Shown here one piece after another: positions 393 to 13,143 of a stretch of DNA of 49,511 bases. Within the stretch, counting starts at the first letter, position 1, and each line of letters starts with the position of its first letter. Source of the stretch: an uncultured Candidatus Saccharibacteria bacterium (GTDB taxonomy: Bacteria; Patescibacteriota; Minisyncoccia; Phycocordibacterales; DATDSR01); assembly GCA_964348575.1 (NCBI GenBank), contig CAYGDD010000001.1, positions 1 to 49,511 on the forward strand. The letters are read 5' to 3'. The position numbers were made by a program, and so were the translations under genes. The notes beneath the pieces were generated by a model, which worked only from the letters and a program-made list of their open reading frames with translations, did not search any database and was not told the DNA's origin.

Positions 393-617
393 ACAGTTAG
401 TTTGCTTAATTTTTGTGGAAAAGGTTCGTGCTTGACTGGGCTTTTTGACGTATACTTAATATATTGGCAGAGATGCGTCTGTGCTTTTAATGCTTGTATT
501 AAAGTGAAGAAAAAACTCTCAAACAAAATCATTGACATAAGGGTAAATAGCGGTCATCACAAGGAGGTGATCAAGCTCAAATCTGACACATTTATAGAGA
601 AGCTTGAACGCCTCTGG

Positions 618-2297
618 ATGGCCCTAGGGGTGATGACCCGTAGAGTAACCGTGTTTGTCCTCTTGTTTGCACTAGTTTTGGGTAGGTCGTACTTTGCAAG
701 TGCTAATACTGCTTATTTTTTCCCAAAAGCATGTTTGGGTGATTGGAAAAATGTTAGTGTACTTAGCCAAAAGTCTAATCCCTCGTATAGTGAGGGATTA
801 CTGGAAGGCGAGTATGCTTTTTTAAATCCTGGTGATGTGGGGAGATTTTTTTGTGGTAATTGGGAGGGTGCTATCCCAGAGGATTCTGAGGTGAAGGAAT
901 TAAAGCTAATCATCGACATTGCCATAGACGATCATCCAAGAGTCGAGATCATGCCGGCCTTGATTGAAAATTCTCAAACTACGCTTATAGAAGAAGGGTT
1001 GCAACAGATCTCGAGCTCTAGTCAGAGCACCACCTCATCTAACGCTCTGGAGAAGATTATGGATAGATTGAAAGAACCAGAAAATAGCTCGGCTCATGCG
1101 CCAGTCGAAGAGGATAAGCCAGAGGCAGAAGAGGAAAAGCCAATTAGCCTAAATGTAAGAAGCCTTTTCACTCGTATTGTGTTTGCCGAAGAGGTAGCCA
1201 AAGATGAGAAGCCTGATGAGGTTGCCCCAGCTCCATGGGTAGTGCCGGTAGAAGAGATTGTCAAGAAGACTGTGGAAGTGCCAGCAGAGAGTCCCACAGA
1301 GACGAGCGTAGATGCTGAGGTAGACCTCGATACAAACACGAACACAAATCCAGCCACGACCTCGGTAATAGAGCAAAAGCGCACATTAGAGACAGTAAAG
1401 AAAGTAAAGACTGAAAAAAAAGTTGAGAGTATAGAAGCTGGGGTGGTGGCGGGCACTTCTACAGTCCAGGAAGATGTTGCCTTAGGTGGGGGTGAGGCGG
1501 TAGAGGAGGTAGCTGAAGAGGTGGTGGATGCAACAGCCGAAGAGGTGATAATGGGCATAACAGACGGGGTTGTAGCCCCAGAGCAACTTATGACGGTGGC
1601 ATATTCCATTGACGGAGATAATTGGGTGGAGATTGCAACCTTAGACAGAAGCATGGTGGGGAGGCAGGAGTTGTCATTACCTCTTAACAGCTTTACTGAC
1701 TTACACAAGATGCAGATAAGCATACAAACAACTAAGGCTCTAAGTGTTATCGATACTGTGTATGTAAAGAACTTTTATCTAGCTGCTTCGTTTATAAGCA
1801 CGAAGAAGGTCAAAGAAGTGATGATTGATGGCAATGTTGAGTTAGAGCCTGTTGATCTTGAGCAAGTTTTATCCCATTTTGATTATTCACACATGGCAAA
1901 TAATGACCTAGGGCACGTGCTATCGGTGGCAAGTTCAGAGACTGCCGAGGATGCACTGTATCTTATTGACACAAAGACTAATAAGGCTTATAAAATGGTA
2001 CTAGATGTAAAACTAAGTGCAGGGATATCCATAAGATCGAAGGAGAGCAAATTTTATTGGGTAAGTGCAGGTAAGGGGACCTTAAACTCTTTCGATCCGC
2101 GTACTAATATGTTGAGGAAAAAGGGTTTAGCCCCTATTAATCCTTCGTTGGGTGAAACTGACACTGTCAGGATGGCAGATGATGACTTCGATGTTATTTG
2201 GATGGGGAGCGACCTATACTTCTACAGAGAGGACTGGGGCCAGGTGTTTGGGGACGATTTTGGTGACGTGACAGCTAAGCTCTTGGAGTTAAATTAG
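618..2297 (+). CDS. membrane-anchored acidic surface protein, unknown function (start uncertain; ORF is open from 402)
   Basis: ATG at 618 precedes the hydrophobic segment VTVFVLLFALVLG. A long E/V/A/P/T-rich low-complexity linker follows, then a C-terminal globular part. It lies directly upstream of the giant gene (stop 2295-2297, next ATG 2300). Confidence 0.55.
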   Translation: MALGVMTRRVTVFVLLFALVLGRSYFASANTAYFFPKACLGDWKNVSVLSQKSNPSYSEGLLEGEYAFLNPGDVGRFFCGNWEGAIPEDSEVKELKLIIDIAIDDHPRVEIMPALIENSQTTLIEEGLQQISSSSQSTTSSNALEKIMDRLKEPENSSAHAPVEEDKPEAEEEKPISLNVRSLFTRIVFAEEVAKDEKPDEVAPAPWVVPVEEIVKKTVEVPAESPTETSVDAEVDLDTNTNTNPATTSVIEQKRTLETVKKVKTEKKVESIEAGVVAGTSTVQEDVALGGGEAVEEVAEEVVDATAEEVIMGITDGVVAPEQLMTVAYSIDGDNWVEIATLDRSMVGRQELSLPLNSFTDLHKMQISIQTTKALSVIDTVYVKNFYLAASFISTKKVKEVMIDGNVELEPVDLEQVLSHFDYSHMANNDLGHVLSVASSETAEDALYLIDTKTNKAYKMVLDVKLSAGISIRSKESKFYWVSAGKGTLNSFDPRTNMLRKKGLAPINPSLGETDTVRMADDDFDVIWMGSDLYFYREDWGQVFGDDFGDVTAKLLELN

Positions 2298-2299
2298 GC

Positions 2300-5200
2300 A
2301 TGCTAAGAAAGTTATACAAAGCAAGCAGTAAGGTAAAGAAAGTCTACAAAGTAGGAGGTATTTTTCTGCTAGCTTTTGTATTGCTGACCACTACGTATTG
2401 GCCGAACTTGTTTGGTGAGAAGTCCCAAACCGCAGAGGCCTCGCTTACCTCCACGGATAACCAATACGCGATCTCAATAGGCCCAATTGCGGGCAACACC
2501 GGTGCCAACTATGCCTTTGCCACTTTATTTAACCCAAGTGGTTCGGGTAAAACTGCCGTGGTAACAAGAATCCGCATAGGCGTGGATAATATTGCAGCAG
2601 CAAATTATGTGGGTATGACAATTAGGCGAATTTCAAGTGCTTCTGCGGGTACGCAGATTGTCGCAGGGGACATTCCAAAGAAAAACAAATACAGTCCCAA
2701 CTCTATCATGGAAGTGCGACACACAAACGTGACTGTGGGCTTAAGTGGGAGTGTGGACTCAAGAATAAGTTCCCTAACCGCGCCCGGAGCAGTGGGAGCA
2801 TATATAGGCAAGGATGAGCTTGTTTTTGGAGACAACGAAAAGTTAATTCTACAACCAGGGGAAGGAGTAACCCTGTATCAGGAAGCGGCTGGTAACACAA
2901 ATCATGTAGTGCGCCTTACAGTCACTTGGCATGAACAAACCTCTGCTCCCTCTGCGGGCAATGAGTATATGATCTCTATGCCTAAAGTAGAGCTAGCCCT
3001 AACTGCGGGTATGGTTAGTAACGCCTTCTTTAACCCCCTAACTTCAGGCAAGGTCGCTAAGATTAAGAGGTTGAGCATAGATGTAGACTATGACGCGGCG
3101 GCCATATATACAAATCAATTTGCTATTTACAGAATTACCACATCGACCAATGGGACCCTTCTTTCGGCGGTCAACATCCCCAAGAAGCATTCTAGTACAG
3201 GAGATACGGCCATGCAGTTACGCTATACTACGGGTACTACAGGTTCTACTTTTGTTACCGTGACCCAAGTGGGAGGAGCGGATGCCAAGTTGATGAATGT
3301 TGCCCCCGGAGCGGTGGCCGGCCAACCACATTCGCATATGGAGTTCGTCTTTGATTCGGACGATGAATATCTAATAATCAAGCCCGGTGAGGGTATTGCA
3401 CTTACGAACTTAGATATTACCGCTGATGTTGATCAGATAAATCGTATGTCAATTGTTTGGGAGGAGGTGGCAGTGGCCAGTGGGCCTACAGCTGTAGATG
3501 AGTATATGATGAGTGTAGGCAAGGTTAACGGTAATACTACTAATCCATATAATTATATAACGATCTTTAATCCAGGTGGTTCCGGCAAGAATGCTATTGT
3601 GAAGCGCTTGGGGATTAGAGTGGATGCGGCCGCGGCCGCTGTGTATATACCTATGTCTGTTTTTCGAATTACAACAGCCTCTGCGGGGACTCTTGTCAGT
3701 TCGGCTGATATACCTAAGAAACATGCCAGCAGTAGTACGCCTGTGGTTGAGATAAGGCATACAAATGTCACGGCTACGTTGGCAGGGGGAACAGATTCGA
3801 AAATTATGGATATTACTACCCCAGGGGCGGTGGGGCAACTCATTGGTCACGAGGATTTAGTATTTGAAAATGCAGAAGATATGATTCTCCAACCGGGAGA
3901 GGGCTTGGTGCTAAGGCAGACTGGAGTGGGCGACATAGACTTTAGAGTCAAGCTTCTACTCGAATGGAAGGAACAAGCCACCTTACCAACCCCCTTAAAT
4001 CAATATGTGATCTCTGCAGGGCCAATAACTGGTAGTGCAACCAACCCGTACAACTATATTTCCTTTTTCAACACGAGTGGTTCGGGTAAAGTCATGGTGG
4101 TTAACCGGGTGGCCTTGCGCATAGACGCCGCCGCGGCCGCGGTGTATGTCCCTATTTTTATTAGGAGGACAAGCTCACATTCTGCGGGTACCCTTATTGC
4201 GGCCTCGGACATACCCAAGAAGCATGCTAGTTCTAGCAACTCTGTGATGAGTATTCGGCATACCAATGTCACGGCGGGCTTGGTGGGGAACTCCGATTCT
4301 AATCTGACTTCAGTGATCACCCCTGGAGCAGTGGGTTCAGCTGCCGCTCCTCAGATCTCTGGCTACGATGAATTCATTTATAATACTAATGATAAGATTA
4401 TACTAAGGGAGGGTGAGGGCTTTGTGGTGAGGCAAGAGGCGGTAGGTAGCACGGGTCTTAGAGTCAAGCTCTTGGTCGAGTGGGATGAGGAAAACACGGC
4501 CCCCGCAAGCAAGGACGAATATATTGCCTCGATTGGCCCAGTTGCGGGCAATACAGGCGAAATGTATACATATGCTTCGATATATAACCCCGCGGGTTCG
4601 GGTAAGGCCCTTGTGCTTAAGCGCCTGGGCTTAGATATGGCTCTTGTGGCGGCAGGTGTGTATGGGCCAATGACAATTGCAAAAATGAGCAACGCAACGG
4701 GCGGTACTCTGGTTGACAACGCAAATGTTTTGAAGAAAGACACAACCTCGGGAACGCCTATCGCAGAACTTAGGCATACGGGAGTCTCTACAAGTTCTAT
4801 TTGGAGTAGCTCCTCTCGTATTATGGGTAGAACCTCACCAGCAGTGCTTGGTCAAGGATTCGGCTTCAGTGAGGTTGTCTTTGCCAATGATCACCAGTTG
4901 GTTTTGTATGAGGGCGAGGGGTTGGCTCTGTATCACGAGCTTGCCCAAGACGGCGATCTTAGATCTAGGATGAGCGTAGTCTGGTTGGAGGTGGTGCCAC
5001 CACCCTCGGTGAGCATCTCTAGTGCTTATGACGAGATCTTTAACTACGGCGGAGTCGCCTCTACCTCGGCCTTGCTAACCGTTACCGACATAGATGGGGT
5101 ACTTACTACCACCAACAAACTCCGCATACCCATAGCCACTTCGAGTATTAACATGCTTTGGGACACTAGTATCACCACTCCCTCATACGGTGGCACTGGC

Positions 5201-7237
5201 TCAGGCAACGTCACTAATCCTGTGACATATGAGGGCGGGGGTTCAGTAGCCGTTATAAATGTAACCACCAACTTTAGTGCTGGTCAGACCCTTACGATAT
5301 CGGGTCTTAAACTCAAGAGCTTCAACACCGCTACTTCCTCCACCCCCGCTTACCTTGGTATCTTCGCCGATGGAGCTACCGATCAATCCCTTAATGCCAC
5401 CACCACCCAGTCTGCCGCCATAAAAGGTACCCTTTTCTTGGGTAATCACACTGCCGGTCAAGTAATTGACCAGTGGGACACCCAGACCCCAACCACATCA
5501 GTGCATTATCGCTTTGGCCTAGGGGCTTCGGGTGAGAGTATTAGTATCGCGACTACTACTATTTCCCTCTCTAGTATCACAGGTATTGATACTTCTAACT
5601 TTAGCTTCGCCCGTCTCTATTTTGATGCCAATAACGACGGCTATGCAGGTGCTTCTACCACAGCTAAGGCTTATCTACGGCCAAACTTTAACAAAAATAC
5701 CGGCTTGTCCGCATTTGGTTGTGCCATTAACTATCTATGTGTAGATGAGGATACCACCGATGACGACAGCACATTCGTTAACACAGCTGCTACCCTTACC
5801 ACCGATGAGACTTATACACTTGTGAACTCTACCACCACAGGTCATATCTCCAATGTAAGAGTGGTTAACCGGATGGGCTTAAATGGTGGGACTAACTACA
5901 CAGCCAACATCAGACATATGCTCAACATAAACGCCGTAAACTATAAATCCAACGCCACTACGAGTATCACCACTACAGGTTATCAAAATTATTCTTATGA
6001 TTGGGTTGTTAACCCAGCTACCGGCCTAGCTTGGCAATGGAAGGACTTGGATAACTTATCCTCGGGCATCTTCTTTGTAGGTATTGCGGGGACGAATTCA
6101 TTCAGATTTACCCAATCGTACGTGGAGGTTACTTATTGTACTGGGGATTGTCAGATAGGCTATGACGGCACGGTCTTTATCTCTGGTGGAAGTGGGTACA
6201 TAAATTTTGCCACCTCTTCTGCCTACTACGCAAACTCTACTGGAGCCACGGCCACTACGAGCCTGCTTGCTGTGCTTTCTATGACTGGCTTGGTGTCTGC
6301 CGACACTATGACTATGAGCTTTGCTTCAACTCAAGCTAGCTCCACCGGTGCCACAAGCACCAAGACAATTACTCCCACGGGCTCGGCCAGTAATATTACT
6401 CATACATTTGATATCAGCAATACCGCACCAGCTATTACCAACCATACATTCAATTCAGGTAACGCTATCAATCTCATAGAGGGTACCTATAAATGGGCCA
6501 CCAGCACTATGCTTATTACTGATGACCAGTTCTGCACCTCTATCACCAGCGTAACAGCCAAGGCCTACCTCGCTTCTACCACTAACTCGGGCACCCTCTG
6601 TGCCGAGAACGACCTTAACTGCTACATAGGCGTAGGCTCTACCACGGCAGTATCCAATTGCGTAGCCACCACTACGGGTGATACTTGCGGAGCTTCCGAT
6701 ACTACAGTGGAGTACGACTGTGGCTTCAAATTCTGGTATAACACTACACCCACCGACACGGGCTCATGGGCCTCTAGTATCTGGAGTGTCTCGGCCACGG
6801 CCACCGACTCGGGCGCCCTTACCGGCACAGCTACTAACACCAGTCAGTTAGTGGAGATTAACACTCTCTCGGCCTTTAGCATCAGCCCTACCACTATAAG
6901 TTATGGTTCGCTGGACCCTGGCACAGACTCCGGCTCGGTTAACGCCACTACCACTATCACCAATACTGGTAATAGCGATGTAGACCCTAGGCTGTCGGGC
7001 ACCGATATGACCTCTGGCCCTAACACTATCTTGGTAGGCCAGCAACAATATTTGGGTCTGCCCTTCATATACGGTGCGGGCACACCTCTTAGCGCGGTGG
7101 CGACCTTGCTTAACTTGCTCTTGCCTGCTCCAACTTCTACCACTACGCCCGTGCTTGACTACGTGTCTTGGGGCTTAGGCGTACCAGCCGGTAAACCGGC
7201 CGGTTCGTACACGGGTACTAACACAATACAGATATAA
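2300..7237 (+). CDS. giant surface protein (1645 aa): N-terminal TM anchor, 5 tandem ~170-aa modules, S/T-rich region, Cys-containing C-terminal region
   Basis: Uninterrupted 4.9-kb ORF. N-terminal hydrophobic helix GGIFLLAFVLLTTTYW. Internal repeats are visible in translation. The C-terminal ~270 aa is paralogous to the next gene. Confidence 0.85.
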   Translation: MLRKLYKASSKVKKVYKVGGIFLLAFVLLTTTYWPNLFGEKSQTAEASLTSTDNQYAISIGPIAGNTGANYAFATLFNPSGSGKTAVVTRIRIGVDNIAAANYVGMTIRRISSASAGTQIVAGDIPKKNKYSPNSIMEVRHTNVTVGLSGSVDSRISSLTAPGAVGAYIGKDELVFGDNEKLILQPGEGVTLYQEAAGNTNHVVRLTVTWHEQTSAPSAGNEYMISMPKVELALTAGMVSNAFFNPLTSGKVAKIKRLSIDVDYDAAAIYTNQFAIYRITTSTNGTLLSAVNIPKKHSSTGDTAMQLRYTTGTTGSTFVTVTQVGGADAKLMNVAPGAVAGQPHSHMEFVFDSDDEYLIIKPGEGIALTNLDITADVDQINRMSIVWEEVAVASGPTAVDEYMMSVGKVNGNTTNPYNYITIFNPGGSGKNAIVKRLGIRVDAAAAAVYIPMSVFRITTASAGTLVSSADIPKKHASSSTPVVEIRHTNVTATLAGGTDSKIMDITTPGAVGQLIGHEDLVFENAEDMILQPGEGLVLRQTGVGDIDFRVKLLLEWKEQATLPTPLNQYVISAGPITGSATNPYNYISFFNTSGSGKVMVVNRVALRIDAAAAAVYVPIFIRRTSSHSAGTLIAASDIPKKHASSSNSVMSIRHTNVTAGLVGNSDSNLTSVITPGAVGSAAAPQISGYDEFIYNTNDKIILREGEGFVVRQEAVGSTGLRVKLLVEWDEENTAPASKDEYIASIGPVAGNTGEMYTYASIYNPAGSGKALVLKRLGLDMALVAAGVYGPMTIAKMSNATGGTLVDNANVLKKDTTSGTPIAELRHTGVSTSSIWSSSSRIMGRTSPAVLGQGFGFSEVVFANDHQLVLYEGEGLALYHELAQDGDLRSRMSVVWLEVVPPPSVSISSAYDEIFNYGGVASTSALLTVTDIDGVLTTTNKLRIPIATSSINMLWDTSITTPSYGGTGSGNVTNPVTYEGGGSVAVINVTTNFSAGQTLTISGLKLKSFNTATSSTPAYLGIFADGATDQSLNATTTQSAAIKGTLFLGNHTAGQVIDQWDTQTPTTSVHYRFGLGASGESISIATTTISLSSITGIDTSNFSFARLYFDANNDGYAGASTTAKAYLRPNFNKNTGLSAFGCAINYLCVDEDTTDDDSTFVNTAATLTTDETYTLVNSTTTGHISNVRVVNRMGLNGGTNYTANIRHMLNINAVNYKSNATTSITTTGYQNYSYDWVVNPATGLAWQWKDLDNLSSGIFFVGIAGTNSFRFTQSYVEVTYCTGDCQIGYDGTVFISGGSGYINFATSSAYYANSTGATATTSLLAVLSMTGLVSADTMTMSFASTQASSTGATSTKTITPTGSASNITHTFDISNTAPAITNHTFNSGNAINLIEGTYKWATSTMLITDDQFCTSITSVTAKAYLASTTNSGTLCAENDLNCYIGVGSTTAVSNCVATTTGDTCGASDTTVEYDCGFKFWYNTTPTDTGSWASSIWSVSATATDSGALTGTATNTSQLVEINTLSAFSISPTTISYGSLDPGTDSGSVNATTTITNTGNSDVDPRLSGTDMTSGPNTILVGQQQYLGLPFIYGAGTPLSAVATLLNLLLPAPTSTTTPVLDYVSWGLGVPAGKPAGSYTGTNTIQI
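2456..5008 (+). repeat. five tandem coding repeats (504, 537, 501, 516, 495 nt) inside the giant gene
   Basis: Module starts are at 2456 (DNQYAISIGP), 2960 (NEYMISMPK), 3497 (DEYMMSVGK), 3998 (NQYVISAGP) and 4514 (DEYIASIGP). Recurrent motifs are FNPxGSGK, DAAAAAVY, SAGTL, DIPKKHxSS, RHTNVT, PGAVG, ILxPGEG and RVKLLxEW. Confidence 0.9.
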
Positions 7238-7256
7238 CGGGCTGGGGATAACAATA

Positions 7257-7285
7257 GTGACGTCTAGGCCAAAAGTGAGTATAAT
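7257..7285 (+). promoter_or_regulatory. candidate sigma70-type promoter for the 7357 gene
   Basis: GTGACG (7257-7262), a 17-nt spacer, then TATAAT (7280-7285) in the 119-nt intergenic gap. Confidence 0.35.
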
Positions 7286-7356
7286 TAGAATCAAATTATG
7301 TTTTGGATTCTGAGTTATTATTAAGAACAGGATGTTGAAGTATAAAGTTAAATATA

Positions 7357-8331
7357 ATGACGAGATATAATTATTCGCAGTCCCTAATTGCCTTCGCTAT
7401 TTTTGCAGTTGGACTTTTCGTTTTTGTCTCTGTGGTAATCGCGGATGTGGCCAACACAAGTGTCTCTGTGGGCAATGCCGCTCCTACCATCTCCGTTAAC
7501 TTTAATGGGGGTAATGCCATCACTCTTAACGAAGCCACATATGCTTACGCCACTGCCACTCTTACTATTACAGACGCTAACGGTTGTAACAGTATTAACT
7601 ACGTTAAGGCGACAGCCTTCCTAGCCTCTACCTCCGCCCCTGCCAGTACCATATGTACTGGTAATGATAACAATTGCTATCCTACCTCGTCGTCTACTGC
7701 AAGTTATCCAGCTTTATCCGACGCGGTGTGTTTGGCTACTACCACAGGTAATCAATGTACGGGTGGTCTAGATACTTCTGTAGTCTATGACTGTGGCTTT
7801 AAGCTCTGGTTCATTGCCGAGGCCACCGACGCCAGCGCCCCTTCTTGGGCCTCTAGCATCTGGGCCGTGGCCGCCTCTACCTCTGATGGTCTTGCCTCTA
7901 CTACAGCTTCTAATACTAACCAAACAGTAGAGATTAATACTCTCGCCGCTCTAGATCTTACGGGTACGCTTGCCTACGGTTCGGTATCAGCCGGCACCAA
8001 CACCGGTAGCACCAACTCCACCACCACCGCCACCACCACTGGCAACATAGCTATTGACGCTCAAGTATATGGTAATGCCTCGTATATGGAATCTGGAGCT
8101 AACACACTCCATATCGCAAGGCAGAAGTATCAGGCCACGCCCTTTATCTATAGTTCGGCTGGAGTACACTTAACTTCTACCACTACGCCCAACCTAGAGT
8201 TCGCCAGTGTTAAGACATTAAGTACCACTTCAGTAGAAACGCAATTAGTCTCTTGGGGTATAGCTATTGAGTCTGGTCAGGCTAACGGTACCTACACGGG
8301 CTCCAGTACCCTCGCAGCCGTAGCCGACTAG
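7357..8331 (+). CDS. secreted or anchored protein paralogous to the C-terminal region of the giant protein (324 aa)
   Basis: N-terminal hydrophobic segment LIAFAIFAVGLFVFVSVVIA. It aligns by eye with giant-protein residues from about APAITNHTFNSGNAINL onwards. Six Cys are conserved and shared motifs include VxYDCGFKxW, SWASSIW, VEINTL and VSWG(I/L). Confidence 0.8.
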   Translation: MTRYNYSQSLIAFAIFAVGLFVFVSVVIADVANTSVSVGNAAPTISVNFNGGNAITLNEATYAYATATLTITDANGCNSINYVKATAFLASTSAPASTICTGNDNNCYPTSSSTASYPALSDAVCLATTTGNQCTGGLDTSVVYDCGFKLWFIAEATDASAPSWASSIWAVAASTSDGLASTTASNTNQTVEINTLAALDLTGTLAYGSVSAGTNTGSTNSTTTATTTGNIAIDAQVYGNASYMESGANTLHIARQKYQATPFIYSSAGVHLTSTTTPNLEFASVKTLSTTSVETQLVSWGIAIESGQANGTYTGSSTLAAVAD

Positions 8332-8401
8332 TCCTAATTGAGCACAGAGGGGAGAGGAGGGTTCTTTACTTATCTAGTAAAATTGGATACAGTTTAGTTT
8401 A

Positions 8402-9301
8402 ATGATACATAACTACCTAAGGCTATATGCGGGTACCCTCTTATTGGTGCTAACCTTCTTGGCTCCAGGGGTAGTGTCTGCGGGCTTCGGCGTCTCACCT
8501 GCCAAAATTATTGAGACCCGTCTAGTCAAAGGCTCTGTGCTAGACCGGGTGGTATACTTCGTCCAAGGTACACCAGACGCGGACTTGGCCATTACATTGT
8601 CTGTTGATGACGGTGAGATCGGTAGTTGGATAAGTATTACTCCCACAGACAATGTCATAATACCTAAGGGTATCCAACAGTTTCCGGTTACCATTAGGAT
8701 TACAGTGCCTCGCGACGCCAAGACTGGTATATATAAGGGCTTTATTCGCGCCTCGGCAAGACCAGTTGAGACATTAGAGCAAGGTTCTGGTTCTGGTGTG
8801 AGTATTGTGGCTGGGGCTGTAGCCACCATAGAGCTCACAGTTGGAGAGGGCGTGTATTATGAGTACGTCATTAGGAATCTAGACCTCAAGAATATCAAAG
8901 AACATCAGTCGCCTTCCGTTGACCTATCTATAGAGAATAAGGGCAATGTGCCCGCCGGCCCGGCCGAGGCTTCGTTTGAATTGTTTAACAAGTATGGGGA
9001 CGTACGTCTTGCCTATGTGCAGGGAGTTAAGATTGCTAGACTTGAACCCTTTATAACCAAGACTGTAAATGTAGAGTTCCCCCTGCCTCTTAGGCTCTCT
9101 GTGGGTGAGTACTGGGGCTTGGTTAGAGTTTATAACGACAGTGGCGGGACAGTGCGTGAGTTTAAGGGAGTATTTAACGTAACCAAGTCCACCTTCTTAG
9201 ACAAATACAGCCAGATGATAAGTATGGGCTTGGGCATCCTTTTGTTATTAGTGTTCCTACTGTTTATTCTTAAGAGGATAAGAAATAGGTCTAAGAAATG
9301 A
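8402..9301 (+). CDS. signal peptide + two beta-sandwich-like domains + C-terminal TM anchor (architecture resembles DUF916/DUF3324 or CARDB/NEW3)
   Basis: Signal-like LLLVLTFLAPGVVSA followed by GFGVSP. The second half contains a CARDB-like stretch (VDLSIENKGNVPAGPAEASFELFN). C-terminal TM MGLGILLLLVFLLFIL is followed by the basic tail KRIRNRSKK. Confidence 0.6.
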   Translation: MIHNYLRLYAGTLLLVLTFLAPGVVSAGFGVSPAKIIETRLVKGSVLDRVVYFVQGTPDADLAITLSVDDGEIGSWISITPTDNVIIPKGIQQFPVTIRITVPRDAKTGIYKGFIRASARPVETLEQGSGSGVSIVAGAVATIELTVGEGVYYEYVIRNLDLKNIKEHQSPSVDLSIENKGNVPAGPAEASFELFNKYGDVRLAYVQGVKIARLEPFITKTVNVEFPLPLRLSVGEYWGLVRVYNDSGGTVREFKGVFNVTKSTFLDKYSQMISMGLGILLLLVFLLFILKRIRNRSKK

Positions 9302-10146
9302 GATGGTTATTTTACTTCACGATGAGTATATTAGTAGTCGGGGGAGCACTACAGATATATGCCGAGACATCAGTAGTTACTGTGACGGTGATAATCCCCG
9401 AATGTAATGACACTCTTGATAATGACGGCGATACCTTTGTAGACTACCCTTCTGACCCCGGATGTACTAGTCTCTTTGATAACGACGAGACTGACCCAGT
9501 GGCTCCACAGTGCAATGATGGCATAGATAACGACGGCGATTCTAGAATAGATTTTCCGACTGACCTTGGTTGTGACAGCCTAACGGACAATGATGAGTCT
9601 GGCGAGGTTGTTGTCACACCGACTACCACCCCCGGCGGGGGTAACGGTCCAATCTTGCCTACGGTCACTCTAACTGGTACACAGGTGATCTTCTCGGGTA
9701 GGGCCTTCCCCGGGGCAAGTATCACCGCCTTAGCTGATGGCAAGGTGGTAGGTGTCACTAGGGTAGGTGTTGATAACTTGTTTAGATTAAGCATTGAAGA
9801 GATCCCTCCCGGAGTGTACATATTCAACATCTACGCCACAGATCCCTTAGGGCGTACTCTCCGGCCCCAGTCGTTTGCTTTAGAGCTTAGCCGAGGCTTG
9901 ATTACAGAGATTAAAGGAATCGTGTTCACGCTATCAAGTGAGATTGATAAAATAACCGGCTGTTCTAATTTGGGTGACCTTAATGCTGATTGTAAGGTTA
10001 ATCTTACTGATTTTTCCATCGCTGCTTATTGGTGGGGCAGGACCCTAGATGCTGACTTCTTGAAATTGGAAGCCAGAAGATTGAGTGGCGATGGCAAAAT
10101 TAGTCTGGAAGACTTTAGCATCCTCGCTTATTATTGGACAGGATGA
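9298..10146 (+). CDS. dockerin-containing secreted protein with two Cys/Asp-rich Ca-binding-type repeats and an Ig-like middle domain
   Basis: Two copies of CND(T/G)xDNDGDxxxD(Y/F)PxDxGCxSLxDNDE. The C-terminus carries duplicated dockerin-type segments, DLNADCKVNLTDFSIAAYWW and SGDGKISLEDFSILAYYW. ATGA overlap with the upstream gene. Confidence 0.75.
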   Translation: MRWLFYFTMSILVVGGALQIYAETSVVTVTVIIPECNDTLDNDGDTFVDYPSDPGCTSLFDNDETDPVAPQCNDGIDNDGDSRIDFPTDLGCDSLTDNDESGEVVVTPTTTPGGGNGPILPTVTLTGTQVIFSGRAFPGASITALADGKVVGVTRVGVDNLFRLSIEEIPPGVYIFNIYATDPLGRTLRPQSFALELSRGLITEIKGIVFTLSSEIDKITGCSNLGDLNADCKVNLTDFSIAAYWWGRTLDADFLKLEARRLSGDGKISLEDFSILAYYWTG

Positions 10147-11102
10147 TTATGGGAACTCAAAGCACAAAACTCAAAGCACAAAACTCAAAGTCGGTTAGAT
10201 TGATTTCGTATTGTTTTTTTATCTTCGCTTTTACCATACTCTGCATACAATTTACGAGTAATACAGCCTATGGGGCTTGGCTTGGTTTCGGCCTAGAGTC
10301 AGTTGAGGTGACGGTTAATAAGGACTTCTCTGTGGACTTATTGCTTGATCCAGAGGGTGGAGATATTAACGCTCTTGAGCTAGAGCTTAGTTATGACCCG
10401 ACTAAATTATATTTCAAATCTGGGCCAACAGGTAAGTCTGTGGTAAGTATCTGGCTTACTCCTCCGGTGGCCACAGAAGGGCTTATAACTATGGCGGGCA
10501 TTATGCCCGGAGGCTTTAGTGGGTTAATAGACATAGCTACAGGCAAGAAGAGGGCGGGCAATATTGCTTCATTCGTCTTTAGGCCACTGGTAGTGGGCAC
10601 GTCTACAATTGAATTTGAGACCACCAAAGTCATCAAGAATGATGGTCTTGGCACAGAGCTTAAGTTACCTGCTTATAATTTAGTTGTCAGGGCTAACCAA
10701 AGTGCAGTAGGCTCGGTAGATATTTACGAATATAATGACACAGAACCCCCGGATGTATTTGAACCAACCTTGATAAAGTCAAAATATATCTATGATAATA
10801 AATATACGCTCATCTTTAATGCTAGCGATGGCGGTTCGGGCGTAGAGAGATACGAAGTGAGTGAGGGTGAGGATAAGTTTAAGAACGCTAAGAGCCCGTA
10901 CCTTTTGGAAGATCAGGCTTTAGAGGGTATAATATTAGTTAGGGCGATTGACTTCGCCGGTAACGCCCGGACTGTTGCGCTTGAGCCTTATTCCGCAAGC
11001 AATAGTGGTAAGTGGACAGGCTCGCAGGTACTTATAGTAATCGCATTTGTCATATTGTTAATTGTATGGATGATAAGAAGAAAATTCCAAACTCACATCT
11101 AG
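10143..11102 (+). CDS. cohesin-domain protein with C-terminal TM anchor (start uncertain: TTG 10134, ATG 10143 or ATG 10149)
   Basis: Cohesin-like region FSVDLLLDPEGGDINALELELSYDPTKLYF...ASFVFRPLVVGTSTIEF. An Ig-like domain follows (GGSGVERYEVS). C-terminal TM VLIVIAFVILLIVWMI. Confidence 0.7.
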   Translation: MIMGTQSTKLKAQNSKSVRLISYCFFIFAFTILCIQFTSNTAYGAWLGFGLESVEVTVNKDFSVDLLLDPEGGDINALELELSYDPTKLYFKSGPTGKSVVSIWLTPPVATEGLITMAGIMPGGFSGLIDIATGKKRAGNIASFVFRPLVVGTSTIEFETTKVIKNDGLGTELKLPAYNLVVRANQSAVGSVDIYEYNDTEPPDVFEPTLIKSKYIYDNKYTLIFNASDGGSGVERYEVSEGEDKFKNAKSPYLLEDQALEGIILVRAIDFAGNARTVALEPYSASNSGKWTGSQVLIVIAFVILLIVWMIRRKFQTHI

Positions 11103-13114
11103 CCCACTTTGCGTATCTCGGTGCGGTGTTGCTTGTGGCCTCATTTTTATTCTATCCGACACTTAGTGCCCAAAGCGAGACAGGAACCTCACTATATCTT
11201 ACGCCCAGCACCGGTAACTATGCGGTGGACGATACTTTCTCTGTATCTGTATATATTAATACTGGGGGATTGTCTGTTAATGCCATAGAGTCAGCCATCA
11301 CTTTTCCACCTGATAAGTTGCAAATAGTTTCGCCCTCTATTGGCAAGTCTGTTATCGGGGTGTGGGTTGGCCAACCTAGCTTCTCTAATTCGGCGGGCAC
11401 AATCAACTTCCGAGGGGCTATCCCCAACCCGGGTCTTATTACCTCACAGGGGCTTATCTCTACCTTTACCTTTAGGGTTAAGTCTGTGGGTAAGGCTGTT
11501 GTTAAGTTCACCGACAGCTCCAAAGTTTTGCTTAATGATGGCAAGGCCACCAATGTATTAAGTAATACCAGTGGGGCCATCTATGATCTTGTCTTACCCC
11601 CTCCTCAAGGACCTATTGTCGTATCTTCTACTAACCCCGACCAATCCAAGTGGTATCCCAACAGTTCAGTCTCTTTTTCCTGGTCAGGTGATAGCGAACT
11701 AGACAAGTTTAGCTATGTTTTAAACAGTGAGCCTGTCAGTAACCCAGATAATATCCAAGAGTCGGGCTCCACTGGTATCACTTATGCCGACCTTGAGGAC
11801 GGCATACACTATTTCCATATCAAGGCTTACAGAGATGGCGTATGGGGTGGTGTGACCCATTTTGCAGTCAAGGTAGACCAAACTCAGCCGGCAGATTTTA
11901 GGCTAATTATTGAGCCCCGTAAGACCACCGCCAATAGAAAGCCTATCATAATCTTTGACACCATGGACGGCGCCTCTGGAGTAGACTATTTTGAGCTTAA
12001 GATGATTTCCCTTAGCGTAGGAGCTGTTAATTTGGGCCAAGTTTCTAATGAGTTTTTTATTGAGAGTACTAGCCCCTATATCCCAGAGCTTGAGATTGGC
12101 AAGTATGATTTAGTGCTCAGAGCATTCGATAAAGCTGGGAATTACAGAGAGGTTAAAGAACGGATAACTATCCTCCCGCCGGCTTTGGGGGCTATCGGTT
12201 TCTTGTGGCCCTCTACGTGGCTTGGCTTCCTGCTTTTATTGCTCCTCCTCCTTATTAGTGCCCACTTGTCTAGGAAGTATTATCTTTGGCATCTTAGACT
12301 ATCCCACCAGCATGCTATGGGCCCAACGGCTCAGGGTGACATCGCAGAGAAGCTAGCGACGCTTAAAGAATATCAGAAGAAGTACGGCCATCTAGTTGTT
12401 GTCCTAACCTTGCTAGCCACATTGTTTGGCAATGCTGGCATGGCTCGAGCGGACATTGATGACCCTAACCGGCCGGCCCCCCCAAGTGTCACTCTTATAT
12501 CTGAAAATATTAGCAATGAAGAACTCTTCTACATTGGTGGTAGACACAACGTCCCAGGGAGTATCGTGACCATTTACCTCCAAGGGGATAGTGGCGAGAC
12601 AAGTAGCTTCCTGACAAGTACTAATCAGAAAGGGGACTGGTTCTACTCTATGACCCGATTCTTGCCGGCTGGGGAGTATAGTGTCTGGACCCAGGCGCGT
12701 TCGGGTAATGTAGAGAGTCCCCCTTCTGCCCAAACCAAGTTTAATGTAGAGAAGACCGCCTTCTCTGTAGGGGGTTCTAGGATCAGCTATCAACTTATCT
12801 TTGGCCTTGTCTCTATTATCTCGTTTATTCTAAGCTTAATCTTACTATTACGCGCGTACTATTATTACAAAGCAGGCAAGAAGAAGCACGCTCTCCTAAC
12901 CAAAGAGATAGAAGAGGCCACAGCCTCTGTGCATAGAGGCTTCGCCATTATTAGACGCGATATCCAAGCAGAACTTGAACTGGTGAAGAAGGCTAAACTT
13001 TCGGGTAGCTTACGGGCAGAGGAAGAGAAGCGCGAAGCGCAACTGCTTAGCGACCTTAGTAGTATAGAGGACTCTATAGGAAGGGAAGTGTGGGATATTA
13101 AGCAGTACAGCTAA
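11066..13114 (+). CDS. cohesin-domain polytopic membrane protein (about 680 aa)
   Basis: ATG 11066 (MDDKKK) precedes a signal-like segment. Cohesin-like region FSVSVYINTGGLSVNAIESAITFPPDKLQIVS...STFTFRVKSVGKAVVKF. Further Ig-like domains and three hydrophobic segments follow (WLGFLLLLLLLLISAHL, LVVVLTLLATLFG, LIFGLVSIISFILSLILLL). The tail is charged and coiled-coil-like. Confidence 0.7.
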   Translation: MDDKKKIPNSHLAHFAYLGAVLLVASFLFYPTLSAQSETGTSLYLTPSTGNYAVDDTFSVSVYINTGGLSVNAIESAITFPPDKLQIVSPSIGKSVIGVWVGQPSFSNSAGTINFRGAIPNPGLITSQGLISTFTFRVKSVGKAVVKFTDSSKVLLNDGKATNVLSNTSGAIYDLVLPPPQGPIVVSSTNPDQSKWYPNSSVSFSWSGDSELDKFSYVLNSEPVSNPDNIQESGSTGITYADLEDGIHYFHIKAYRDGVWGGVTHFAVKVDQTQPADFRLIIEPRKTTANRKPIIIFDTMDGASGVDYFELKMISLSVGAVNLGQVSNEFFIESTSPYIPELEIGKYDLVLRAFDKAGNYREVKERITILPPALGAIGFLWPSTWLGFLLLLLLLLISAHLSRKYYLWHLRLSHQHAMGPTAQGDIAEKLATLKEYQKKYGHLVVVLTLLATLFGNAGMARADIDDPNRPAPPSVTLISENISNEELFYIGGRHNVPGSIVTIYLQGDSGETSSFLTSTNQKGDWFYSMTRFLPAGEYSVWTQARSGNVESPPSAQTKFNVEKTAFSVGGSRISYQLIFGLVSIISFILSLILLLRAYYYYKAGKKKHALLTKEIEEATASVHRGFAIIRRDIQAELELVKKAKLSGSLRAEEEKREAQLLSDLSSIEDSIGREVWDIKQYS

Positions 13115-13143
13115 GGAGGCTGAACCTTTTCTTAGCTGTTAGC

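Follow-up and report, generated by a model that had tools for sequence, protein, structure and literature searches.

A probable Pam-type pilus locus with a giant tip protein candidate and a dockerin-cohesin module in an uncultured candidate phyla radiation bacterium

Bacteria of the candidate phyla radiation (CPR), a very large group of which most remain uncultured, live in attachment to other microbes, and the mechanism of this attachment is a central open question. Here, we analyzed a stretch of 49,511 nucleotides from an uncultured Candidatus Saccharibacteria bacterium (contig CAYGDD010000001.1, positions 1 to 49,511 of the forward strand, assembly GCA_964348575.1; referred to as the window), which begins with a locus of seven genes, g1 to g7, encoding among other proteins a giant repeat protein (g2), its small paralogue (g3), a candidate chaperone (g4) and a dockerin-cohesin trio (g5-g7). 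We propose that these genes constitute a divergent Pam-type pilus locus, an explanation that we hold, on balance, to be probable. A sequence-only reading of the same DNA had taken the locus for a cell-surface adhesion or appendage locus in a small-genome organism, plausibly a host-attachment machine, and had matched it to no described system. That reading is right in kind, as the locus is a conserved one for a surface appendage of a small-genome organism. It is wrong in calling the system undescribed, as relatives with the same gene order encode pilins that score above the cutoff of the Pam pilin model NF058581, and the Pam pilus has been described (bioRxiv 10.64898/2026.03.03.709456).

A conserved gene order and its relation to the Pam pilus

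For the locus survey, a scan of one genome per species gave 47 loci, the open reading frames (ORFs) of which were compared with g1-g7 by BLAST and then clustered. The order g1, giant, one or more small paralogues, g4-like gene, g5, g6 and g7 recurs in more than 25 other CPR contigs and is not a chance arrangement; the sequence-only reading had named a lack of conservation in any relative as a result that would refute it, and the order proved to be widely conserved. The commonest form comprises a g1-like protein (~830 residues), a class-A beta-lactamase-fold protein (~335 residues), a giant (~1100 residues), two to four small paralogues (~365 residues), a protein at the g4 position (~325 residues), and g5-like, g6-like and g7-like proteins. 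The variant found in the window, with g1, giant, g3, g4, g5, g6 and g7 in this order, is kept in the loci L034, L052, L053 and L054, and L053 shares 56-63% identity for g3-g7 (63% for g7) and, like the window, is followed by a convergent PALP gene. Whatever the variant, the small protein or proteins whose genes immediately follow the giant gene are paralogues of the giant's C-terminal domain (CTD). Clustering of 294 C-terminal segments of 190 residues yielded three main types, namely a common type (170), the g3 type (83) and a Moranbacteria type (29), and the correspondence between the giant's C-terminus and the downstream small protein holds across all three. This rule agrees with the earlier suggestion that the giant and the paralogue encoded on its own serve as distinct subunits within a single structure. 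Every homologue of g2 or g3 that carries a name belongs to a Patescibacteria group.

Pam filaments are known from Candidatus Mycosynbacter amalyticus, in which cryo-electron microscopy identified PamA and PamB; Pam pilins are two-domain proteins that polymerize by donor-strand exchange, and Ser356 of PamA carries a glycan (bioRxiv 10.64898/2026.03.03.709456). Two FimC/PapD-like chaperones, PamC and PamD, each combining two beta-sandwich domains with a C-terminal transmembrane helix, are encoded in the same operon, as are the pilin PamE, the tip pilin PamT and the RbmA-like, transmembrane-anchored PamR. The conserved Pam neighborhood has a "tail fibre-like protein" at its center, and Pam homologues are confined to the CPR, mostly to Saccharimonadia and Microgenomatia (bioRxiv 10.64898/2026.03.03.709456). 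The Pam models in NCBIfam (June 2026) are NF058581, "Pam pilus system pilin subunit" (CPR_Pam_pilin_C; cutoff 55 bits), and NF058579, "CPR-type pilus protein PamT". Among the 61 small paralogues, 51 matched NF058581 (best E 2.4e-21) and 48 matched NF058579. It is the commonest form of the locus whose small paralogues and giant C-terminus exceed the NF058581 cutoff; in locus L009, NF058581 recognized both the C-terminus of the giant (56.9 bits) and two pilins (69.5 and 67.2 bits). Homologues of g1, the g2 repeats, g5, g6 and g7 flank NF058581-positive pilins in the same order as in the window.

The window shares several further features with the Pam system: restriction to the CPR, as judged from the g2 and g3 homologues; an operon of Sec-exported proteins; candidate pilins with two predicted immunoglobulin (Ig)-like domains and probable disulfides, with transmembrane-anchored proteins of two predicted beta-sandwich domains encoded beside them; a co-localized large protein of the "tail fibre-like" kind; and, in sister loci of the same gene order, pilins above the NCBIfam Pam cutoff. 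It differs in that its giant fuses a whole pilin module to a five-jelly-roll head, and in that g1, the dockerin protein and the two cohesin membrane proteins, all core to these loci, go unmentioned in the preprint. The lineage of the window resembles Paceibacteria/Parcubacteria, in contrast to the Saccharimonadia and Microgenomatia.

A number of results weigh against assigning the locus to the Pam system. None of the seven proteins of the window matches any NCBIfam Pam model at E ≤0.1, and neither g3 (84 CPR homologues; threshold E ≤1) nor its L034 homologue does so. In an hhalign comparison, the g3-type CTD and the Pam-pilin-C type did not match significantly (best probability 14%, P 0.002), with an alignment in register across 148 columns. 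The template modeling scores (TM-scores) of the Foldseek matches to the g3 model were low, at 0.2-0.38, obtained with a library apparently lacking PamA and PamB entries. Finally, cohesin, dockerin and WxL are not mentioned in the Pam preprint (bioRxiv 10.64898/2026.03.03.709456). Because the pilin and the chaperone-like protein of the window lack a Pam-model match and the hhalign comparison was not significant, the Pam membership of g3, and of the locus with it, rests on synteny, architecture and predicted fold.

Giant, pilin, candidate chaperone and dockerin-cohesin module

The giant, g2, is composed of a signal or anchor segment, five tandem jelly-roll repeats, a Ser/Thr-rich middle and a C-terminal pilin-like module (Table 1). 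The repeats share 32-52% pairwise identity (z ≥28 against shuffled sequences). An AlphaFold2 (AF2) model of residues 41-911 was all beta, with a predicted local distance difference test score (pLDDT) of 91.5 and a predicted TM-score (pTM) of 0.91, and in this model the five jelly rolls are packed into a single rigid body. Foldseek returned jelly-roll folds only (C1q head, PNGase F and viral capsids) with low TM-scores and no close structural relative, and a PDB sequence search with the giant-family profile gave nothing useful. More than 100 unannotated CPR proteins, typically of ~1100 residues and drawn from Kerfeld-, Pace-, Parcu-, Moran- and Saccharibacteria and other Patescibacteria, match the five-repeat region at 38-48% identity. 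Single repeats were also matched by phage proteins of ~200 residues. The best structural match came from Streptomyces phage Coruscant, with an uncharacterized protein at 28% identity (E 3e-12), and about a dozen ~200-residue proteins from uncultured caudoviruses matched as well. These caudoviral matches fit the "tail fibre-like" label of the preprint; as a separate observation, the phage matches hint at an exchange of jelly-roll domains between phages and CPR bacteria.

The middle region of g2 had no family match in the Pfam scan and is not conserved in the ~1100-residue relatives; relatives carry other inserts at this position (LamG, RCC1 and fn3 domains in the longer ones, and Kelch-like domains), and the region is probably a stalk or a set of variable domains. 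The last 274 residues of g2 align with the whole of mature g3, including both of its domains, at 46% identity (E 4e-51; alignment over 1372-1643). Giants of 1627-2486 residues that lack the five jelly rolls occur at L052:5026-9909, L053:1975-9435 and L054:5041-9948. In these three loci, the g3-type module lies behind LamG/DUF2341, Kelch-like or unknown heads, and the N-terminal head of the giant can be exchanged, with the pilin module and the remaining locus staying in place.

The stand-alone paralogue g3 consists of a signal peptide, an N-terminal Ig-like sandwich containing three cysteine pairs, a linker (NTLAALDL, ~residues 193-200) and a C-terminal Ig-like domain. Within the linker, L196 and A198 are nearly invariant among the CPR homologues. 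The AF2 model, built with 76 homologues, showed two Ig-like beta-sandwiches at a pLDDT of 89.5, and a Foldseek search of the PDB with this model returned generic Ig folds and, weakly, the chaperone-usher subunits AggA, FimH and CsuE. PDB sequence searches with the g3-family and small-paralogue profiles gave nothing useful. The modeled sandwiches, the cysteine pairs and the conserved linker fit a Pam-type pilin. The common pilins of ~362 residues, which fall into more than 100 protein clusters of widely sampled origin, share 60-89% identity among these clusters, which is unusually high conservation for an exposed surface subunit; a homologue search with the common-pilin profile retrieved close, unnamed relatives only and did not reach PamB of M. 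amalyticus.

We next consider g4, which carries a signal peptide, two Ig-like domains, a C-terminal transmembrane segment (residues 268-296) and a basic tail, and which has 867 representative homologues. By hhalign, g4 is related to the family at the g4 position of the common loci (probability 95.6%, E 1e-8). Sequence matches suggest a link between this family and the WxL clusters of Lactobacillales, which encode small WxL proteins, large WxL proteins in which variable N-terminal domains precede a C-terminal WxL domain, and WxLIP proteins, the latter combining DUF916, DUF3324 and a transmembrane segment and being predicted to insert a beta-hairpin strand into WxL; such clusters are reported almost only in Bacilli (PMC9772566, PMC10599100). 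The Pfam model WxLIP_PGBD (DUF916, PF06030) was matched by 16 members (best E 1.1e-8) of a mixed set of 27 g4-like proteins (A2), in which g4 and the L034 homologue of g4 are included along with four relatives that carry LysM. The top PDB sequence match was the solved EfmWxLIP1 (9i25_C, 9i1y_A), with E 1.3e-3 for the broad A2 profile and 0.07 for a narrow one, and WxLIP_HBD (PF11797, DUF3324) was matched by two of 87 g4-type members. For g4 itself, Pfam and NCBIfam gave weak CARDB and choice-of-anchor-T matches only, with no match to PF06030 or PF11797. A g4-only profile of 87 sequences recovered neither WxLIP_PGBD nor EfmWxLIP1 from Pfam and the PDB, so the link between g4 and WxLIP is indirect. 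The bona fide Saccharibacteria locus L051 contains two genes of the g4-position type, matching the PamC and PamD pair in number. Our reading is that g4 would be a membrane-anchored chaperone and a remote relative of WxLIP, its likeness to PamC and PamD being drawn from their published descriptions.

Downstream of g4, g5 encodes a protein in which two acidic double-disulfide repeats (residues 36-64 and 72-100) and an Ig-like domain are followed at the C-terminus by a type I dockerin. On its own, g5 matches the Pfam model Dockerin_1 weakly (E 0.09); all 25 g5-family members match it (best E 9e-8), and with the g5-family profile solved type I dockerins are found at 5.7e-7, in a match that spans the two repeats. 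The first dockerin repeat of g5 is canonical (DLNADCKVNLTD) and the second degenerate. The acidic repeats (9403-9597, residues 36-100) follow the pattern CNDxxDNDGDxxxDxPxDxGC...DNDE twice, match NCBIfam NF033662 weakly and are not found in most g5 relatives.

The next protein, g6, has a cohesin-like domain (~10293-10625), an Ig-like domain of the OmpL47 type and a C-terminal transmembrane segment (residues 291-320) followed by basic residues. It scores 21.2 bits (E 3.5e-4) against Pfam Cohesin, just under the cutoff of 24.1 bits, and 1e-5 against the OmpL47-type barrel, and its family is kept in 24 loci. In g7, a cohesin domain (~11216-11578; 26.2 bits, above the same cutoff) is followed by an Ig-like domain, a transmembrane segment, a short loop, a second transmembrane segment, a Big_13 domain (1.8e-5), a third transmembrane segment and a charged C-terminal tail. 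The two proteins are 33% identical across the cohesin-like domain and also have the second Ig-like domain in common. Pfam Cohesin is matched by only 5 of 45 family members; the cohesin family profile matches solved cohesins at 6.7e-4 over 55 residues. The dockerin and the two membrane-anchored cohesins named in the sequence-only reading are both upheld at the level of the family. As a side observation, residues 392-700 of g7 (12185-13114) contain three further transmembrane segments, the Big_13 domain on the outside and a charged C-terminal tail of ~80 residues, a topology that would suit signaling or coupling across the membrane.

As in known cohesin-dockerin pairs (PF00963, PF00404), a type I dockerin with duplicated calcium-binding segments is found beside membrane-anchored cohesin modules; the window differs in having no enzymes and no multi-cohesin scaffoldin, in embedding the pair in a pilus-type locus, and in the degenerate second repeat of g5. 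Because g5-g7 lie downstream of the genes for pilin and chaperone in the common loci as well as in those of the g3 type, the trio belongs to the system in these lineages. Literature searches combining Patescibacteria with cohesin or dockerin returned nothing relevant. Judging from the description of PamR, its counterpart may be among g5-g7, with g6 the likeliest.

The first gene, g1, encodes an N-terminal membrane anchor or signal (hydrophobic segment at residues 71-102 of the ORF), a cysteine-containing N-domain, an acidic and Pro-rich low-complexity middle and a conserved beta-rich C-terminal region. In 26 loci, a g1 homologue precedes the gene for the giant. Searches of Pfam, NCBIfam and PDB sequences, a profile search of the PDB included, gave no match for g1, and a role as a conserved partner in the proposed filament system is speculative.

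Gene boundaries, variant loci and surroundings

The seven genes reported by the sequence-only reading are all present as co-directional ORFs, and the tight junctions described there are likewise found, with 2 nt between the genes at 2297/2300, an overlap of the ATGA type at 9298-9301 and further overlaps at 10134-10146 and 11066-11102 (Table 1). Export or membrane anchoring of all products is borne out by an N-terminal hydrophobic segment in each of the seven; that of g2 is shorter and falls under the hydropathy threshold used, yet is visible (VGGIFLLAFVLLTTTYW). The true starts are probably at 504 (GTG) or 618 (ATG) for g1, 10143 for g6 and 11066 for g7. A promoter-like site between g2 and g3 may boost expression of the pilin gene, the consensus match being its one basis. 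The hairpin at the end of g7, located between convergent genes, is the probable end of the operon. Within g1, an antisense ORF (1094-1723, - strand, 209 residues) has a low-complexity translation rich in Ser, Thr and Ala and is almost certainly not a gene.

Table 1. Coordinates of the genes, domains and sites of the locus (residues refer to the encoded protein, nucleotides to the window)
Feature	Residues	Nucleotides	Strand	Description or basis
g1		402..2297	+	ORF; first gene of the locus
g2		2300..7237	+	ORF; 1645-residue giant, proposed pilus tip protein
g2 jelly-roll repeats		2441..4999	+	Five tandem repeats of ~170 residues each; pairwise identity, AF2
g2 repeat 1	48-216	2441-2947	+
g2 repeat 2	217-394	2948-3481	+
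g2 repeat 3	395-562	3482-3985	+
g2 repeat 4	563-734	3986-4501	+
g2 repeat 5	735-900	4502-4999	+
g2 Ser/Thr-rich middle	901-1371	5000..6412	+	29% Ser+Thr
g2 C-terminal pilin-like module	1372-1645	6413..7234	+	Paralogous to g3; six Cys
Promoter-like site		7257..7285	+	In the 119-nt g2-g3 gap; 10/12 sigma-70 consensus matches
g3		7357..8331	+	ORF; 324 residues, proposed shaft pilin
g4		8402..9301	+	ORF; 299 residues, proposed as a PamC/PamD- and WxLIP-like pilin chaperone anchored in the membrane
g5		9298..10146	+	ORF; 282 residues, secreted dockerin protein
g5 dockerin	225-282	9970-10143	+	Dockerin_1 family matches
g6		10134..11102	+	ORF; cohesin-like, transmembrane-anchored
g7		11012..13114	+	ORF; cohesin, Ig-like, several transmembrane segments
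Hairpin		13107..13139	+	13-bp stem; g7 end, between convergent genes

The class-A beta-lactamase-fold gene of the common loci, which is absent from the window, overlaps the start of the giant gene (L001:9067-10071, L009:8836-9822 and 28 other loci). Its products match Pfam Beta-lactamase2 in 30 of 30 cases, with invariant SxxK, SDN and KTG motifs, and the protein scores 88.8 bits against the NCBIfam class A model, for which the cutoff is 200. Some giant-bearing contigs (L004, L033, L038, L039, L040, L042 and L049) are labeled Gammaproteobacteria, Pseudomonadales, Planctomycetales, Bacteroidia, Pacearchaeota or Aenigmatarchaeota, labels that probably reflect misbinning. L040 and L006, which were sampled at one site, have near-identical genes, and the giant of L049 is broken up into five ORFs.

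The remainder of the window (13144-49428) is dominated by surface-glycan and glycosylation genes, with Pfam matches to Glycos_transf_1 (four), Glycos_transf_2 (four), PMT_2 (three), GDP-mannose dehydratase/epimerase, GtrA, YdjC, DUF4015, Asn synthase and Mur ligase. These enzymes might act on the Ser/Thr-rich middle of g2 and on g3. The same region contains no ATP synthase genes, unlike the Pam neighborhood of the preprint.

Alternative explanations, proposed assembly and meaning

The strongest alternative to a Pam-type pilus is a static surface complex of the WxL/Csc type, in which no filament would be formed and the membrane-anchored, WxLIP-like g4 would hold g3 and the C-terminal module of g2 non-covalently at the cell surface, displaying the g2 head as an adhesin, as has been proposed for the WxL clusters of Lactobacillales. 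The sequence-only reading had dismissed WxL systems, a dismissal that is not supported: the layout of g2, g3 and g4 is exactly that of a WxL cluster (PMC9772566), and the g4-position family matches WxLIP models. As in WxL/Csc clusters (PMC1534035, PMC9772566, PMC10599100), a large protein with variable N-terminal domains has a C-terminal domain in common with one to several small proteins, the partner protein combines a signal peptide, two Ig domains and a C-terminal transmembrane segment, as g4 does, and the g4-position family matches both the WxLIP Pfam model and the solved EfmWxLIP1. This shared layout (PMC9772566, PMC10599100), together with the WxLIP_PGBD, EfmWxLIP1 and WxLIP_HBD matches given above, speaks for a static complex. 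Against it, WxL motifs are absent, and the WxL domain model PF13731, defined by two Trp-x-Leu motifs, matched neither g2 nor g3 in Pfam, nor any of the 61 small paralogues (E ≤1). No LPxTG-like motif or partner, the latter common but not obligatory in WxL clusters, is present in g1-g7. The locus also occurs in the CPR and not in the Bacilli to which WxL clusters are almost confined, and it includes extra dockerin and cohesin genes. NCBIfam identifies the small paralogues of sister loci as bona fide Pam pilins, a class that forms filaments, and in CPR relatives the shared domain builds filaments. We consider a static complex rather unlikely, and it may represent a second view of the same ancestry and not a true rival.

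Two further explanations were considered. The resemblance of the g2 repeat to small caudoviral proteins and to capsid-type jelly rolls, the rigid body indicated by its pTM, and the unusual sequence conservation of the repeat region across CPR classes would all suit a phage-derived or S-layer-like receptor-binding array, with the five-jelly-roll protein acting as a lattice or a tail-fibre-like spike. We regard this as very unlikely, as there are no flanking phage genes, the repeat head is always fused to a pilin-type CTD and followed by free pilins, and g3-type sister loci exchange the head for other domains and keep the remaining locus. A prophage was likewise rejected for the lack of phage genes. 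The adjacent cohesin and dockerin domains could also be read as a cellulosome-like scaffold, in which the dockerin protein, and possibly dockerin enzymes encoded elsewhere, would dock on two membrane cohesins for polymer degradation or harvest and the giant would be unrelated cargo. This appears hardly tenable: Pfam and NCBIfam identified no glycoside hydrolase, carbohydrate-binding module or multi-cohesin scaffoldin in g1-g7, the sole dockerin protein carries Ig-like domains, and across the CPR g5-g7 invariably occur together with genes for the giant, the pilin and the chaperone; a cellulosome was rejected for its lack of enzymes.

Among known pilus types, chaperone-usher pili (Pap/Fim, Csu and AAF) share with the window Ig-like subunits, a tip adhesin that joins a binding head to a pilin domain, the proposed donor-strand exchange, and the appearance of AggA, FimH and CsuE among the Foldseek matches of g3. 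They differ in that the window has no usher and no outer membrane, its chaperone candidate is transmembrane-anchored and its pilins have two domains. A chaperone-usher pilus was excluded, with no usher or PapD match in Pfam for g1-g7 and a chaperone candidate that is anchored in the membrane. A sortase pilus was excluded as well, given the lack of LPxTG in g1-g7 and the absence of a sortase among 25 of the 39 Pfam families in the other 30 ORFs of the window.

Returning to the Pam-type pilus, the locus would encode a CPR-specific surface filament of the kind that, in the cultured relative Candidatus Mycosynbacter amalyticus, contacts the host cell. By analogy with the groove and donor strand of PamA and PamB, g3 would polymerize head-to-tail by donor-strand exchange, its inter-domain linker filling the groove in the C-terminal Ig domain of the next subunit. 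The giant g2 would sit at the distal tip, joined to the fiber through its pilin module and presenting the jelly-roll head as the binding end. We envisage g4 as a tethered chaperone that would cap the pilin groove and hand subunits on, as proposed for PamC and PamD and predicted for WxLIP and WxL. More speculatively, the g5 dockerin might bind the g6 and g7 cohesins to form a membrane base that would hold or terminate the fiber in place of an usher. What the locus adds to the preprint is a distinct pilin family with a modular giant proposed as the tip protein, a core dockerin-cohesin module, and a candidate chaperone related to WxLIP.

A broader proposal, which we offer only tentatively, is that a single ancient system of monoderms gave rise to two branches, the Pam pili and the WxL/Csc clusters found in Firmicutes. 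A tethered two-Ig chaperone (PamC/D being equivalent to WxLIP) would complement the incomplete Ig-like domain that is common to a modular giant tip protein and to small subunits, and in most CPR lineages the system would be completed by a dockerin-cohesin base (g5-g7) replacing the usher and by a highly conserved five-jelly-roll head recognizing a conserved host-surface ligand. Literature searches combining the CPR with WxL or DUF916 returned nothing relevant, and we found no paper linking Pam and WxL systems.

If the Pam-type assignment is true, the Pam pilus would extend beyond Saccharimonadia and Microgenomatia to Paceibacteria, Parcubacteria, Gracilibacteria and related groups, in which it would occur with three pilin types or more. 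The giant, conserved and "tail fibre-like", would then be a tip protein with a swappable head, and the dockerin-cohesin trio would be a candidate for the missing membrane base of the fiber. A connection would, moreover, emerge between CPR pili and the WxL clusters that lactic acid bacteria and enterococci carry and that are poorly understood, making a mechanism of the donor-strand type directly testable for those clusters.

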